Shown here piece after piece: positions 18,397-23,282 of a DNA stretch of 64,000 bases; within the stretch, counting starts at the first letter, position 1, and each line of letters opens with the position of its first letter. The stretch comes from Porticoccaceae bacterium (lineage in GTDB: Bacteria > Pseudomonadota > Gammaproteobacteria > Pseudomonadales > Porticoccaceae), in the NCBI GenBank assembly GCA_049615065.1, contig JBMZEV010000001.1, positions 9,195 through 73,194 on the forward strand, written 5' to 3'. A program made the position numbers and the translations under genes. The notes below the pieces were generated by a model, which saw only the letters and a program-made list of their open reading frames with translations, made no database searches and was not told the DNA's origin.

Positions 18397-19122
18397 ATGT
18401 CTGATTTGGCTTTTTTTCGCAACGACCTTCCCTTTAGTGCCTACAGCACTAGCCATTCAGTAGTCATGCTTATCGCTGTTGCATTGATAGCTTTAATTTT
18501 TGTTGCAAATAAAAAGTTAAACTATCAGCAAAACCTATTAATTGGTCGCTCACTTTCACTACTTTTAGCGCTAACGGTAGTGGTCTATACGATTTTTGAA
18601 ATTGTTTTCGGGCGATTTACTATTGCCGAAGATCTGCCACTGTCCACCTGTAATCTTTTCTGTATTTTGGCGCCATGGCTATTTTGGCGGCCAAATTTTA
18701 AATTTTTTGTTGTGGTGTATTTTTTAGTCATGGCGGGCACCTTGCAGGCAGTTATAACGCCTGATCTTTATAGAGGTTTTCCAAGTTATGGCTTTTTTAA
18801 ATATTGGATAACCCATGTTGGATTAGTTCTTTTAGTGATCCATTATCTCGTTTGCTTCGAACTCTATCCAACAGCTAAAAGTATGTTATCGGCTTTTGCA
18901 TGGCTTAATATATATGTATTGGCACTACTTCCGATCAATTTTCTGTTAGGTGCCAATTATTTTTATTTGATGGCAAAACCCATTAACCCTTCTGTGTTGG
19001 ACTATTTTGGCCCCTGGCCGATTTATATCTTAGTAGCAGAATTATTGGTGATGGGATTTTTTGCTATCGCCATGTTGCCGGTTATACTAGTTAAGAGAAC
19101 AGCGACAAATAGTTTAAGCTAA
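18397..19122 (+). CDS. TIGR02206/YwaF (TMEM164-like) integral membrane protein
   Basis: Multi-TM; [26 protein letters not shown] and GPWPIY motifs. Confidence 0.8.
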
Positions 19123-19141
19123 ACCTTCAGGCAAAACATTA

Positions 19142-19786
19142 ATGGCTCAAAGACAACTTTCAATGCTCGATAGACTTCTGGAACAAATTGATTCTGGATT
19201 GCGCACCTCATTTGGCAATGCTCCGCAGCCAAATCGAGCATCCCCTGCTCAAAGCTTGGAAGAGCCTGAACTAACTGATCAACAGCGTCAGCACGCCATT
19301 GGGCTAATGCGCGTTAACCACGCCGGTGAGATATGTGCCCAAGCCCTTTACCAAGGTCAGGCATTGACTGCCAAGCTCCCACAAGTTGGCGACAAAATGC
19401 GTGCGTCGGCAGAAGAGGAAATTGATCATTTGGCTTGGTGCGAACAGCGCATTCATGAACTCGGCGGCAAAACTAGTGCCCTTAACCCTGCCTGGTATGC
19501 GATGTCATTTGCTCTGGGTGCAGGTGCAGGCCTTGTAAGCGATAAATTGAGTTTAGGCTTTGTCGCTGCAACAGAGGATCAAGTATGTAGCCATCTTGAA
19601 AAGCATCTTGATGAACTTCCCATCGAAGACAATAAGAGTCGCTCAATTGTTGAGAAGATGCTGGTAGATGAGGCCCAACATGCTGAGTCAGCCCTAGCCG
19701 CCGGCGGACATAGGTTCCCAAAACCTGTAAAAACACTGATGACCTTTGTTTCATCAGCCATGACTAAGAGTAGCTATAAACTATAG
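19142..19786 (+). CDS. coq7: Demethoxyubiquinone hydroxylase Coq7 (di-iron)
   Basis: [31 protein letters not shown] and DEAQH motifs. Confidence 0.94.
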
Positions 19787-19787
19787 C

Positions 19788-20774
19788 TTAGCTATTTTTA
19801 CTAGAGATACTCTCTCTGTCTGCATCAAGGTCTTGCTGCCAGCCATTTATTAATTGCACTATCTGGTTTGATACCCAGCTGTGAATAGGTGAACTGGCTG
19901 TTCTGTTATGCTGTAAAAGCGCCATTGGAATTGTGCCCACATGAGGTAATCCCGACGGGTAGCGCTTTCGAACAATGCGATACATTTCACGGTCTAATGC
20001 CATACCATACTTAGCCGCAACCATCAGGCAGTCAGTACCACAAACAGTTTCCATCGCAGTCATTAGCTGATTGGTGACCAACGCTTTTTTGCGCTTTCTT
20101 CCCAAGTCTCTTAGCGCCTTATCAAATCGTGCATCAGTTCGGGCACTAACCCGCTTGGCAATCAACAAGTAATACTGCACAAAGGGATATTCTAAGATTT
20201 CGTCGAGGGTCACCTGATCTTTTTGGGATAGGGGGTGTCCCTCTCTCATCCAAATAGAAGGGGTAAAAATAGCTAGTCTTTTAGAGGAAATGTCTTCACT
20301 AACGCCTCGCTCAACATCAATCGCAAAATCCAAAACGCCTTCAGCCAATTCACCCTCTACAGAATCAGTTTCACTGGATATTGATAATATGACATTGGGC
20401 GCGTGCTCGGTAAATACACGAGTCAGCTCTGAAACTAATGAAATTGCAACAAATTCTGGCACGGCAATATTAATTTCCCCCACATAGGTAGCAGGATCAA
20501 ATTCACCCTCACTGACCATTTCAAGCACCGTGTCTAGGAGGCTAGGAAGTCGGATTTGCAGCTCTCTCGCTCTTGGTGTTGGCACTAACTCGTTGCCAGT
20601 TCTGGTAAACAGCGGGTCCTCTAACTGATCTCGCAACCGCTGTAAAACTCTACTCATAGCAGGCTGCGTTATAAATAACCGCTCCGCTGCCTTAGTCACA
20701 CTTTTTTCTTCCAGTAGTGCCTGAAGGGAAACCAATAAATTTAAATCCAATCGAGATAGTCTTTGAAGATTCAT
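19788..20774 (-). CDS. LysR family transcriptional regulator (NodD/LeuO/YidZ-like branch)
   Basis: LDLNLLVSLQALLEEKSVTKAAERLFITQPAMSRVLQRLR HTH plus DPLFTR; strong AGGAGG RBS. Confidence 0.93.
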   Translation of the reverse strand: MNLQRLSRLDLNLLVSLQALLEEKSVTKAAERLFITQPAMSRVLQRLRDQLEDPLFTRTGNELVPTPRARELQIRLPSLLDTVLEMVSEGEFDPATYVGEINIAVPEFVAISLVSELTRVFTEHAPNVILSISSETDSVEGELAEGVLDFAIDVERGVSEDISSKRLAIFTPSIWMREGHPLSQKDQVTLDEILEYPFVQYYLLIAKRVSARTDARFDKALRDLGRKRKKALVTNQLMTAMETVCGTDCLMVAAKYGMALDREMYRIVRKRYPSGLPHVGTIPMALLQHNRTASSPIHSWVSNQIVQLINGWQQDLDADRESISSKNS

Positions 20775-20791
20775 AGTCGCCTCCTATGGTT

Positions 20792-20857
20792 ATTACCAAA
20801 ACGCATAATAATAATGCAAACAATGCATTAGAATTATGACATGAAGCGCCTTATAGT
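20792..20857 (+). promoter_or_regulatory. Promoter P1: two LysR-type boxes plus sigma70 -35/-10
   Basis: ATTACCAAAACGCAT (20792-806), 7 bp, ATGCAAACAATGCAT (20814-828), TAGAAT, 17 bp, TATAGT (20852-857). Confidence 0.7.
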
Positions 20858-20864
20858 ATCAACC

Positions 20865-21042
20865 ATAAAGCAATGGCAGATCAGCTTAAAGATTTAAACG
20901 TTTTGCGCTAAAAGCAAATAGCGAAAAACTTAAGGCAGTCTAAAAGTTAAGAACTAAGATGCCAAAGAATGCGGTATGAAACAAACCCCTCTTAATCCTT
21001 GCTAAAGGATTTTTTTAGGACCCTCCCAGGGTCCTTTTTTTT
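20865..21042 (+). ncRNA. Candidate small RNA 1 (about 178 nt) divergent from LysR
   Basis: Promoter P1 upstream; long 5' rod (ATA/TAT, TGGCA/TGCCA, CTTAA/TTAAG, GTTTT/AAAAC, CGCTA/TAGCG); CAAACCCCTCTT; hairpin AATCCTT/AAGGATT; U tract; terminator. Confidence 0.7.
21017..21042 (+). terminator. Intrinsic terminator of candidate sRNA1
   Basis: AGGACCCT-CCC-AGGGTCCT followed by a T run; no annotated + strand CDS upstream. Confidence 0.85.
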
Positions 21043-21057
21043 ACCCGCGAACAGGTC

Positions 21058-21123
21058 ATAACAAAATGTAATGGCTATTATGCGTTAAATGCATTGGATT
21101 AATATCAATCGCGACATTAAAGT
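21058..21123 (+). promoter_or_regulatory. Promoter P2: same architecture as P1
   Basis: ATAACAAAATGTAAT (21058-072), 7 bp, ATGCGTTAAATGCAT (21080-094), TGGATT, 17 bp, TAAAGT (21118-123). Confidence 0.7.
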
Positions 21124-21130
21124 GCTCGCC

Positions 21131-21227
21131 ATAGAGAGATAGCCGCTAGTCAGCGCTTTCTATCAAACCCCTCTTTGCGAATTATCCAAAGAATTTATCG
21201 GGGGCCAACCCTTGGCTCCCTTTTTTT
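21131..21227 (+). ncRNA. Candidate small RNA 2 (about 97 nt), paralog of sRNA1
   Basis: 5' hairpin ATAGAGAG/CTTTCTAT with apical CGCT/AGCG; CAAACCCCTCTT at 21164-175; terminator. Confidence 0.7.
21200..21227 (+). terminator. Intrinsic terminator of candidate sRNA2
   Basis: GGGGGCCAA-CCC-TTGGCTCCC plus T7; the U tail is on the + strand, not on the strand of the convergent yhfA. Confidence 0.85.
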
Positions 21228-21241
21228 GCCTGACATTTAGC

Positions 21242-21655
21242 CTACTGAATTTCGTAGCTGTGGCTCATTTCAACCCCAGCAGCACCGAGCATAATTGAAG
21301 CCGAGCAATATTTCTCTGCAGACAAGTCAACTGCGCGCTTTACTTGGTTTTCTTTTAAATTATTACCGCTAACAATAAATTTAATATGTATTTTGCTAAA
21401 TACAGCGGGCACTGCATCTACGCGCTCTGCCTCTACTTCTGCCTTACAATCAACAATGTCTTGACGCCCTTTTTTTAACATAGCAATAACATCGTAGGAT
21501 GCGCAGCCGCCAAGGCCTAGCAGCAGCATTTCCATTGGGCGTACTCCCATATTTCTTCCACCCTGCTCTGGCGCACCATCCATAACTACCGAATGTCCAC
21601 TGCCGGATTCACCGACAAACATTACGCCATCAACCCATTTTACTACTGCTTTCAT
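21242..21655 (-). CDS. yhfA: OsmC family protein YhfA
   Basis: RPMEMLLLGLGGC and SAEKYCSAS motifs; divergent from crp as in other gammaproteobacteria. Confidence 0.9.
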   Translation of the reverse strand: MKAVVKWVDGVMFVGESGSGHSVVMDGAPEQGGRNMGVRPMEMLLLGLGGCASYDVIAMLKKGRQDIVDCKAEVEAERVDAVPAVFSKIHIKFIVSGNNLKENQVKRAVDLSAEKYCSASIMLGAAGVEMSHSYEIQ

Positions 21656-21812
21656 ACAAATAACCTCAGATTCTTGGAAATACTTTCTTGTTAATACATT
21701 TTAACAGTGAAATCACGCAAGTAGCAGTATTGTTTACTAGTATAAAAATGCATCACTGGCCAGAGGCAATCAAACTCTAATATTTCCAAAACACAAGACT
21801 AGGGGATATCAC

Positions 21813-22489
21813 TTGAACAACCAGAAAATTACCTTTCCACTGCGCAATATAGGTCAGCTTCTTAAGCACTGCCGCAGGCGTAGCTATAAAGCCAGAGGTA
21901 TTATCATTCACCTTGGAGACTACAGCAGTTCTCTTTTTTATATTTTGAGCGGATCTGTTGCGGTTATTGGTGAAGATAGCGACGGCAAAGAAATAACCTT
22001 AGCCTATCTTAATCCGGGTGACTTTTTTGGCGAGATGGGTCTGTTTGAAAAAAAATGTCGCAGCGCACGCATAAGAGCTAAAACAAAATGTGAGGTTGGT
22101 GAAATTAGTTATAGTAATTTTTTTGCTCTCAGCGCCAAGCATCCGGAATTTATCTTTGCTGTAGCGCGACAAATTTCCATGCGCCTTGAGCATACATCAC
22201 GAAAAGCCTGCGATCTTGCCTTCCTTGATGTCAGCGGTCGCGTGGCAACAACAATTATCGACTTGTGCCATGAGCCAGATGCTCAAAAAAACCCAATGGA
22301 ATACATATTAGTATCACTCGCCAAGAATTAGCGAAACTCGCGGGATGTTCAAGAGAAATGGCGGGCAAGGTTCTCAAAAACTTGGCCGCTAGAAAGCTCG
22401 TATCACTCTATGGCAAAACAATTGTTATCCCTAACGGCAATCAACAGAAGCTATCTTTTATAAACGAAAGCCACAACTTTCCTAACTAA
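21813..22489 (+). pseudogene. crp: cAMP receptor protein Crp/Vfr split by a -1 frameshift at the A7 run 22285-22291
   Basis: Frame 0 (21813-22331) encodes the cNMP domain (GDFFGEMGLF, RSA, LAFLDVSGRV). The -1 frame continues PNGIHISITRQELAKLAGCSREMAGKVLKNL...GKTIVI to TAA at 22487-22489. Could be a true lesion, recoding or a sequencing error. Confidence 0.85.
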
Positions 22490-23282
22490 AGAAACGTTTA
22501 AGCTGCTGTCCAGGATTCTCACTGCGCATAAAAGCTTCCCCTACTAGGAAGGCATGAACATCATTATCCCGCATGACTTTGACATCATTGCTGCTGTGAA
22601 TACCGCTCTCAGTAATCACAATACGGTCTTGCGGAATCTGATCAAGCAGCTCAAAGGTATTATCAAGGGACACCTCAAAGGTATGCAGATTTCTATTATT
22701 GATGCCAATCATTGGGTTATCAACAGCAAGAGCAATATCTAACTCTCTCTGGTCATGAACCTCAACCAAGACATCTAGATCAAGTGACCTCGCAGTTGCG
22801 TGTAAACTGTATAGCTCATCTGGCTGTAACGCTGAAACGATTAACAGCACGCAATCTGCCCCGAGAACTCTTGATTCATAAAGCTGATAGTCATCGATAA
22901 TAAAGTCTTTTCGGATAATCGGCAGATTACATGCGGCTCTTGCATCCTGAAGATATTGATCTGCGCCCTGAAAAAAATCCACATCGGTAAGCACTGACAA
23001 ACAAGCAGCTCCACCAAGTTCATAGCTTTTTGCAATTTCAACTGGATCAAAATTTTCTCGGATCACACCTTTGCTGGGTGAAGCTTTCTTAATTTCTGCT
23101 ATCACCGCTGAGTCGCCCGCTGCAATTTTTGCCTGCAGAGCCTTGGCAAACCCACGCGGCGCAGAGGCCAAGTGGAGCTGCGACTTTAACTGCTCAATAC
23201 TGACCTTGGATTTTCGATCTAAAATTTCTTCAGACTTTCTGGTCAATATTTTCTTTAAAACTGTAGGTGTTTCAATACTCAT
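22482..23282 (-). CDS. trpC: Indole-3-glycerol phosphate synthase
   Basis: [24 protein letters not shown] and GINNRNL motifs. Confidence 0.97.

Follow-up and report, generated by a model that had tools for sequence, protein, structure and literature searches.

The locus and its LysR-type gene

What does a LysR-type regulator control when the DNA in front of it holds no recognisable gene? The question is raised by a 467-bp intergenic gap (20775–21241) in the genome of a marine, genome-streamlined bacterium of the SAR92/HTCC2207 clade (Porticoccaceae), seen in a window of 64,000 nucleotides, the whole stretch of DNA that was analysed. The gap lies between two genes on the minus strand, lysR (19788–20774) and a gene of the OsmC/YhfA family (21242–21655), and the ORF list contains no frame of at least 30 aa on its plus strand. 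The preliminary description had placed two plus-strand units in it, at 20865–21042 and 21131–21227, and these are borne out by the terminators, the shared 12-mer and the paralogous promoters described below. It had also read them as sibling base-pairing sRNAs governed by a ligand-sensing LysR, a reading that gains support from comparative tests (conserved operators, conserved seeds, covariation and restriction of the operator to the locus), with transcription, binding, ligand and targets remaining putative. Going by these comparisons, we consider it moderately likely that a dedicated LysR drives two Hfq-type sibling sRNAs, which would pair with Shine-Dalgarno-like sites.

The regulator gene encodes a predicted protein of 328 aa with the Pfam domains HTH_1 and LysR_substrate, and its transcription is directed away from the RNA units, so that the two are divergent. 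Of 151 Porticoccaceae genomes, 141 yielded one ortholog each. Against NCBIfam no equivalog scored above its cut-off (the nearest were BsrA, CitR, LelA, YidZ and LeuO); the best model, BsrA, reached 108 bits (cut-off 480), the GcvA model gave 45.2 bits against 288, and no VtlR-specific model was among the matches. The gene on the other flank matches Pfam OsmC and NCBIfam PRK10738 (160 bits, cut-off 138). Synteny marks it as a conserved flank, convergent with the RNAs, which is not in itself membership of the system; the gene order within the genus is coq7, lysR, RNA units, osmC, crp. The host assembly is 87% complete, so operator sites or targets beyond those seen could be missing from it, and the streamlined SAR92 subclade to which it belongs has genomes of 1.3–1.5 Mb.

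Two RNA units share an invariant seed

The first unit, sRNA1 (type A), is predicted from the sequence to run for about 178 nt on the plus strand (20865–21042), and the model CM R1 scores 77.8 bits at 20973–21042. Its 5′ body of about 105 nt, which has no conserved ORF, is followed by seed 1, CAAACCCCUCUU (20982–20993), the complement of which, AAGAGGGGUUUG, is Shine-Dalgarno-like. A small hairpin, AAUCCUUGCUAAAGGAUU, and a U-run come next in the consensus fold (20994–21011), and the terminator scan found an intrinsic terminator with an 8-bp stem and then U8 at 21017–21042 (stem 21017–21035). The second unit, sRNA2 (type B), is shorter, with putative ends about 97 nt apart on the plus strand (21131–21227). 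By an alignment of 16 orthologs, it opens with a 5′ stem-loop, continues with a single-stranded seed and a hairpin, and ends, after an AU-rich stretch, in an intrinsic terminator with a 9-bp stem and then U7 (21200–21227, stem 21200–21220). Sequence comparison showed seed 2 (21164–21175, plus strand) to be identical to seed 1, the 12-mer CAAACCCCTCTT recurring in both units without a change.

Among the aligned copies the seed showed far less variation than the loops and spacers beside it: ACCCCTCTT is invariant in 20 aligned type-A sequences save for one position in one of them, and CCCTCTTTG is invariant across 16 type-B sequences. In the type-A consensus structure seed 1 is unpaired. The structures around it covary. 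Compensatory changes were seen at all 6 pairs of the hairpin AAUCCUUGCUAAAGGAUU (111 distinct sequences), the sRNA1 terminator stem alternates between GGGACC/GGTCCC, GGGGCCC/GGGCCCC and GGGACT/AGTCCC, and the sRNA2 terminator has covarying pairs among the 16 orthologs (AU/UA/CG and GC/AU). All 12 model pairs carried compensatory changes, with 96.8% of cells paired as against 35–71% when the partners were slid, in an alignment that was fitted to the model and is therefore biased towards structure. Folding of sRNA2 gave −30.2 kcal/mol (z = −3.6), a value that none of 200 shuffles equalled.

Both units thus show a trait of the sRNA class, a U-tailed intrinsic terminator preceded by a conserved unpaired seed. 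Their C-rich seed, unpaired and invariant, is followed by a small hairpin, then by a U/A-rich stretch and last by the U-tailed terminator; in this order of parts the two RNAs appear to be built like Hfq-dependent trans-acting sRNAs. The host genome has an hfq gene (104 bits, above the cut-off). The lack of a known family anticipated by the preliminary description was confirmed, as Rfam cmscan of 19000–22500 with E up to 10 returned only noise far below the gathering scores (Esr41, ncS54, suhB, mir-3 and ceN109).

Paired operators at weak promoters

The upstream regions of the two units align without a gap over about 90 nt, and the elements common to both are ATGC(A/G)..AATGCATT(A/G)GA(A/T)T(A/T)AT, then TA(T/A)AGT, then CCATA(A/G)AG. 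Operator 1 (20789–20839, not assigned to a strand), at about −76 to −26 relative to sRNA1, shares sequence with the lysR promoter region. ATGC/GCAT half-sites recur along it; one dyad among them, ATGCAAACAATGCAT at 20814–20828, has a T-N11-A motif, and the region of the operator also holds an inverted repeat with 15-nt arms. Operator 2 (21055–21105, likewise without strand) is a paralog in the same register relative to the −10 box. The −10 boxes are TATAGT for sRNA1 (20852–20857, plus strand), conserved as TAta.T in relatives, and TAAAGT for sRNA2 (21118–21123, plus strand), placed by sequence and by alignment with the first promoter. In the 127 distinct promoters of relatives from which the operator consensus was drawn, the spacing between operator and −10 box is constant. 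The −35 region of sRNA1, TAGAAT, is poor, as expected of an activator-dependent promoter, and because their −35 elements are poor both plus-strand sRNA promoters were missed by a generic sigma-70 scan.

A position weight matrix built from promoters of SAR92 relatives scored 70.0 bits at operator 1 and 32.7 bits at operator 2, and the best site outside the locus in the host assembly, at its 87% completeness, reached 8.7 bits. The T-N11-A dyad, the block at about −76 to −26, the weak −35 and the control region shared with lysR match the divergent layout predicted for LysR-type operators and promoters. We infer from adjacency, from this architecture and from the distribution of the operators that they serve the LysR. 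The protein would bind both paralogous sites and, on some signal, activate the tandem sibling sRNAs at their weak −35 promoters. It probably also controls its own divergent promoter: a putative sigma-70-like promoter for lysR (TTGATA, 18-nt spacer, TG-CATAAT; 20833–20862, minus strand; 10 of 12 matches in the promoter scan) lies over both operator 1 and the sRNA1 promoter, an overlap suggestive of autoregulation.

SAR92/HTCC2207 bacteria are abundant in coastal and polar bacterioplankton. A regulator in a streamlined genome with two sRNA promoters as its only recognisable operator sites would be a compact form of post-transcriptional control in oligotrophs.

Distribution of the cassette

DNA similarity to the gap was detected in 35 of 36 same-genus genomes, and CM R1 matched in 30 of 31 genomes of genus g1, 5 of 5 of g43 and 13 of 16 of g39. 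A search of 185,579 species genomes for the motif ACCCCTCTTAATCCT-N4-8-AGGATT returned 74 records; the titles of 73 name SAR92, HTCC2207, Porticoccaceae or a wider group that includes these, and the exception was a Bacteroidales MAG. Records titled HTCC2207, H921, H231, MOLA455 and nBUS_09, which bear no MAG label, also have the motif, and the cassette thus appears to be present in cultured strains.

The upstream regions of orthologous lysR genes, which the preliminary description had singled out as informative, show the units and their operator-like promoters conserved through the genus, the family and beyond. Units of operator, C-rich RNA and terminator lie divergent from a LysR ortholog in 12 loci from remote genera of the same family. 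Diverged units also adjoin LysR homologs of 36–40% identity in two other families, where the SAR92-trained matrix gave 13–33 bits exactly at the lysR-proximal site. The units of genus g39 are located away from lysR, elsewhere in the genome, and most g39 genomes examined have a lysR without an adjacent unit, so linkage is not obligatory. The g39 units keep operators of 26–32 bits in 6 of 8 loci examined, in keeping with a site on which a factor acts in trans.

These g39 genomes bear on whether the RNAs might be functional but controlled by some other transcription factor, such as a Fur-like or AT-rich-site binder, with the LysR as a conserved neighbor only. Besides the separation of units from lysR there, and a lysR upstream region that lacks a unit, such control would be consistent with the AT-richness of the operator and its NATWAT-like hexamers (CATAAT, AATAAT), which we take to resemble Fur boxes. 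We nevertheless judge it unlikely. The operator is found only twice in the host genome (70 and 33 bits, against at most 8.7 elsewhere), too few for a global regulator such as Fur. It accompanies even the distant LysR homologs of the other families, overlaps the promoter-like site of lysR itself, and forms a block of about 50 bp at about −76 to −26 with GCAT/ATGC dyads beside a weak −35. Dyads so placed are the usual layout of LysR-type sites.

With the LysR as the preferred regulator, the cassette of LysR, operator and RNA might tentatively be seen as a signalling module of ancient origin in marine Pseudomonadales, spread over the Porticoccaceae and two or more other families, although we hold this wider proposal to be doubtful. 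One regulator would here control only short transcripts, mixing a membrane micropeptide with an anti-Shine-Dalgarno riboregulator in varying numbers. If this is true, streamlined SAR92 genomes would show the riboregulator, and not the peptide, to be the indispensable output, and an abundant ocean bacterium would have an RNA-only regulon with one input.

A membrane peptide on the first unit in relatives

The preliminary description had stated that the LysR has no divergent protein-coding target. This holds for the streamlined subclade, but not for most SAR92 genomes, the larger ones, in which unit 1 also encodes a membrane peptide of 34–40 residues. There the peptide mRNA has the seed and terminator as its 3′ UTR, and a small ORF would share a transcript with the conserved pairing region; in the window no such ORF accompanies the RNA. 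A peptide profile matched 5 of 5 larger SAR92 genomes and 0 of 5 streamlined genomes (91–97% complete), and its search of the host genome gave no match. The sRNA1 5′ body of the streamlined subclade has no conserved reading frame, while promoter, seed and terminator are intact in these genomes. In most relatives, then, the first RNA would be the 3′ part of a short membrane-peptide mRNA, and in the streamlined subclade the ORF would have gone and the RNA part alone would remain. Local alignments of the sRNA1 5′ body to the ORFs of nine relatives were no better than shuffles (z −0.6 to 1.0), and a remnant of the peptide ORF was rejected.

Type B had no ORF in any SAR92 sequence examined, and ORF-less units were the only form beside lysR where loci of five other genera were examined. 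Outside the Porticoccaceae, where five genomes from two families were searched, the peptide profile matched nothing significantly; for this reason homology of the small ORFs there is unproven, although the operator is still recognisable. The peptide family has no name in the Pfam-like and NCBIfam libraries, and source annotations give only ‘hypothetical protein’. Relatives with and without the ORF offer a natural experiment that separates the coding from the regulatory role of a dual-function RNA.

Since the seed and terminator belong to a peptide mRNA in relatives, and since the host has neither the ORF nor a target that our genome scans could find, unit 1 might be a decayed micropeptide gene and unit 2 its degenerate duplicate, the 3′ elements being terminators or mRNA-stability elements with no trans-acting RNA function. 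This too seems unlikely. A lineage streamlined to 1.3–1.5 Mb has retained both full units, operators and −10 boxes included, at 79–85% identity, and the seed has changed much less than its neighboring loops and spacers. Units without an ORF are moreover the rule for type B and in the five other genera, and a bare terminator needs no invariant unpaired 12-mer upstream. We therefore keep to the reading of both units as sibling sRNAs.

Candidate targets and mode of action

The likeliest partners of the seeds would be Shine-Dalgarno-like sequences of the AAGAGGGG type, and translation of the target mRNAs would then be repressed. Seed-complement scans and RNAduplex, run against crudely called gene starts of the 87%-complete host genome, found no coherent or conserved mRNA target. 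The candidates were ccmB, spoT, dnaA, folE and an HlyD-family gene, which form no coherent set. One clean AGAGGGGU ribosome-binding site was present in the host genome, upstream of ccmB; it was rejected as a target because the site is not conserved in 29 same-genus orthologs, the nearest relatives included.

Public RNA runs showed small word shares only. Contigs of relatives (<95% alike) from four RNA-type runs, the label of one being guessed, cover about 20948–21143 and cross terminator 1 and promoter 2; contigs do not reveal where an RNA starts or stops, and DNA carry-over is possible, so that they speak neither for nor against discrete transcripts.

The RNAs could also act otherwise than by pairing at ribosome-binding sites, either as C-rich titrators of an RNA-binding protein or through local interference with the 3′ end of osmC/yhfA. 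The scans for mRNA targets are compatible with this, and so is the closeness of the sRNA2 3′ end to osmC, whose stop codon on the other strand is 15 nt away, in a locus where osmC is the neighbor in most genomes examined. However, the units persist in SAR92 genomes that lack osmC at the locus (L010, L011, L015, L016 and L027), the g39 units are located elsewhere in the genome, and seed, hairpin and U-tail together have the architecture of an Hfq-type pairing sRNA whose seed is complementary to a Shine-Dalgarno-like sequence; we regard these other modes as quite improbable. That unit 1 of the streamlined subclade still encodes a peptide of 9–16 residues, for example MADQLKDLNVLR from 20874, is very improbable indeed, given that the short ATG frames with (F/L)KDL (L001, L002, L004, L006 and L007; FIDL in L005) have no Shine-Dalgarno sequence, differ in frame and length among close relatives and lack a start codon in L003.

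Relation to known regulator–sRNA systems

The RNA family is conserved yet undescribed, and a literature search found no publication on sRNAs of SAR92/HTCC2207; other bacteria already provide examples of the regulatory logic. The novelty proposed in the preliminary description consequently stands for the RNA family, which has no Rfam match, and not for the kind of system, as VtlR/LsrB with AbcR1/AbcR2 is a closer precedent than the analogies it named (PMC5461406). The gene for VtlR/LsrB, a LysR-type regulator of Rhizobiales, adjoins the tandem sibling sRNAs AbcR1 and AbcR2; the regulator activates their transcription, and short exposed C-rich motifs of the AbcR sRNAs (CUCCCA, GUUCCC) pair with mRNAs (PMC5461406). 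SAR92 likewise has a LysR-type gene beside tandem sibling sRNAs, a likeness of organisation only and not of homology. Its RNAs lack sequence or structure homology to AbcR (alpha-r15; Rfam, E up to 10); they point away from lysR, while published descriptions place the AbcR genes downstream of their regulator. The SAR92 regulator matches no named LysR equivalog in NCBIfam, and in most relatives the first unit is a micropeptide mRNA that ends in the sRNA. VtlR reportedly also activates small hypothetical proteins.

In the enterobacterial pairs GcvA-GcvB and OxyR-OxyS, a LysR-type regulator is divergent from the sRNA that it controls, with a shared control region. The SAR92 lysR is divergent in the same way, but those systems have a single sRNA where SAR92 has siblings, and the SAR92 RNAs have no GcvB or OxyS match in Rfam. 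SgrR-SgrS/SgrT and other dual-function sRNAs resemble the larger SAR92 transcript in carrying a regulator-linked small ORF and conserved pairing region; they differ in that the window has no ORF, the regulator is of another family, the pairing region is 3′ of the ORF and there is no sequence similarity. PrrF1 and PrrF2 of Pseudomonas are tandem paralogous sRNAs, each with a promoter, operator and terminator, repressed by Fur. The SAR92 RNAs are also tandem paralogs with a promoter, operator and terminator each, yet they match neither PrrF nor RyhB in Rfam, and whereas Fur sites are many per genome, the SAR92 operator occurs at a single locus.

The lysR–osmC intergenic region

The gene encoding the LysR-type regulator (19788-20774, minus strand; HTH_1 and LysR_substrate domains) is separated by a 467-bp gap from an OsmC/YhfA-family gene on the far side (21242-21655, minus strand; assigned by domain and family matches). 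The preliminary description had proposed that this gap lacks a gene and holds two plus-strand units, each with its own promoter, an identical 12-nt segment and a strong terminator. An ORF scan confirmed that no plus-strand ORF of at least 30 aa is present, and we agree with the coordinates of the two units, sRNA1 (20865-21042) and sRNA2 (21131-21227), whose ends were placed from the sequence. The shared 12-mer, CAAACCCCTCTT, hereafter the seed, was found at 20982-20993 and at 21164-21175, and a terminator scan gave each unit a strong plus-strand intrinsic terminator (21017-21035, followed by T8, and 21200-21220, followed by T7). We judge it very probable that both RNA genes are genuine and conserved.

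Predicted promoters and operator

The upstream regions of the two units are paralogous, aligning without gaps over ~90 nt, and share an ATGC...AATGCATT..GA.T.AT block, a -10 box TA(T/A)AGT and, where transcription is predicted to start, CCATA(A/G)AG. A generic sigma-70 scan picked up neither sRNA promoter because their -35 elements are weak, as expected of activator-dependent promoters. The conserved block, a predicted operator at about -76 to -26, holds GCAT/ATGC dyads, one of them a T-N11-A, and overlaps a promoter-like site of lysR itself. Dyads, a T-N11-A and overlap with the regulator's own promoter are the usual layout of a LysR-type control region.

An operator matrix built from the SAR92 promoters of relatives, trained without the window genome, scored 70.0 bits at the sRNA1 promoter and 32.7 bits at that of sRNA2, with the next best site outside the locus at 8.7 bits in the 1.3-Mb assembly. 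High scores at these two promoters alone argue for a dedicated, local regulator rather than a global one such as Fur, and the predicted operators would make up a two-site regulon in the window genome.

RNA types, conservation and structure

The RNAs had not been recognized as GcvB, PrrF1/PrrF2 or OmrA/OmrB, and the Rfam search bore this out, with no match even at E up to 10. Conservation beside orthologous lysR genes was also found: 35 of 36 same-genus genomes showed DNA similarity to the gap, and the genus retains the order coq7, lysR, units, osmC, crp. The motif ACCCCTCTTAATCCT-N4-8-AGGATT was scanned for in 185,579 species, with one genome per species, and gave 74 records, against an estimated chance expectation of about one match for a motif of such length. 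The titles of 73 named SAR92, HTCC2207, Porticoccaceae or a broader containing group, the other being a Bacteroidales MAG, which shows the predicted RNA to be clade-specific.

In type A (sRNA1) the seed is followed by a hairpin AAUCCU..AGGAUU, a U-run and the terminator. Type B (sRNA2) has a 5' stem-loop ahead of the seed and, after it, a hairpin UCUUUG..CAAAGA, an AU-rich stretch and the terminator. In alignments the seed and small hairpin are nearly invariant and the terminator stems and 5' stem-loop vary with compensation; at the sequence level this is the conservation profile of a pairing sRNA. Alignment of 149 matches (111 distinct) to a covariance model, R1, gave compensatory changes at 12/12 model pairs and 96.8% paired cells, versus 35-71% with partners slid, figures that lean towards the structure because the alignment was fitted to the model. 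R1 matched 30/31, 5/5 and 13/16 genomes of the Porticoccaceae genera g1, g43 and g39, respectively, and weakly matched genera g31 and g33. Public RNA data held only relatives' contigs, which span terminator 1 and promoter 2 and are uninformative on transcript ends.

Link to the LysR-type regulator

Of 151 Porticoccaceae genomes, 141 had a single LysR ortholog. Inspection by eye of twelve loci in more distant genera showed, at every one, between one and four similarly built units divergent from this ortholog, each made up of an operator (AATRCATT..TTAT), a -10 box, a single-stranded C-rich motif (for example CCUCCUAACCCCCUG) and a terminator. Two further families of the order have LysR homologs (36-40% identity) with the same arrangement beside them, and there the matrix trained on SAR92 promoters alone scored 13-33 bits at exactly the lysR-proximal site. 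The units of genus g39 are located apart from lysR; at six of the eight loci examined the operator scored 26-32 bits, which fits a predicted trans-acting factor with a small regulon. The g39 loci with units unlinked from lysR were L105-L108, L112-L114 and L118; diverged peptide ORFs were seen in two units (L106 and L118), and four genomes had two copies at separate places.

A micropeptide ORF in larger genomes

The lysR gene had been described as lacking a divergent protein-coding target. This holds in the window genome, where unit 1 has no conserved ORF and the peptide profile finds no match, but not in the larger SAR92 genomes. Their unit 1 includes a 34-40-residue ORF (MTLVYLxIGFTGLAGAAIAKDxF...) that is strongly conserved and has an AAGGAG ribosome-binding site, the seed and terminator forming its 3' UTR. 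The peptide profile matched 5/5 larger SAR92 genomes, once each and at the LysR locus, and 0/5 genomes of the streamlined 1.4-1.5 Mb subclade (91-97% complete), to which the window genome belongs. Across this subclade the 5' body of sRNA1 showed no conserved frame and no detectable ORF remnant; the operator, -10 box, 5' leader, seed, hairpin and terminator are kept. At the loci examined in five other genera, too, every unit seen next to lysR lacked the ORF, so that sequence comparison suggests selection on the RNA part independently of the peptide. With 74 clusters among 1.84 billion representatives, the peptide family is small, and no name was found for it.

Next to the LysR ortholog, some Porticoccaceae genera have paralogous micropeptide genes arrayed in tandem, two to four at a locus (L127:1097-2114 of genus g40, L129 and L135), with a common GLLGSAIAxDDL motif. 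In L127, L129 and L132, at least the first unit seen is followed by a C-rich tail and a terminator. L027, from the relative's genome G009, has an apparent three-unit array whose peptide-ORF parts contain stretches of N, and such stretches occur at loci of other relatives as well. At five loci of the two other families (L141, L143 and L145-L147) the operator (13-33 bits) was accompanied by a divergent hydrophobic ORF of 27-29 residues, for example MISSAVLAIMVPVTLGLLAMIAYDECH, and then a terminator; the Porticoccaceae peptide profile did not detect these ORFs. L142 had an operator (17 bits) and a terminator, and no ORF was read there.

Proposed mechanism and comparison with known systems

We consider it more likely than not that the locus comprises a LysR regulator driving two sibling pairing sRNAs, and infer five steps. 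The LysR protein would sense a signal, bind both operators and activate both promoters, probably with autoregulation; both RNAs, presumably with Hfq, would pair via CAAACCCCUCUU with AAGAGGGG-type Shine-Dalgarno-like sites, and pairing would block translation. An hfq gene is present in the window genome. Target scans of this genome identified no targets, returning a scattered list (ccmB, spoT, dnaA, folE and an HlyD-family gene); ccmB was rejected, as its ribosome-binding site, the one clean match, lacks conservation among relatives.

The closest known system is VtlR/LsrB, in which a LysR-type regulator adjoins the tandem sibling sRNAs AbcR1/AbcR2 with short C-rich motifs (PMC5461406), as in the arrangement seen here. 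By analogy the locus would work like VtlR-AbcR1/AbcR2, but it is not a member: the Rfam search gave no RNA homology, and the regulator reached the cut-off of no named LysR family model. GcvA-GcvB and OxyR-OxyS share the divergent layout, but their RNAs are single and unrelated. PrrF1/PrrF2 are likewise arranged in tandem, but Fur controls them, and SgrS/SgrT resembles the ORF-bearing relatives rather than the window locus. No literature on SAR92 or HTCC2207 sRNAs was found, and the RNA family, peptide family and LysR subgroup appear to be undescribed; the regulatory logic itself is already known.

Neighboring genes

The crp/vfr-like gene (21813-22489) is interrupted by a frameshift located in a run of seven A (22285-22291). 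Frame 0 stops at 22331, past the cNMP-binding domain, and a different frame carries the HTH part (..TRQELAKLAGCSREMAGKVLK..); in the close relatives L004 and L005 the gene is one intact frame. Possible explanations are an assembly error in the homopolymer, a genuine pseudogene and programmed slippage. Upstream of coq7, at 18397-19122, lies a TMEM164-family gene (PF14808, E = 3e-40), a family named after a eukaryotic membrane protein and hence an unusual annotation for a bacterium.
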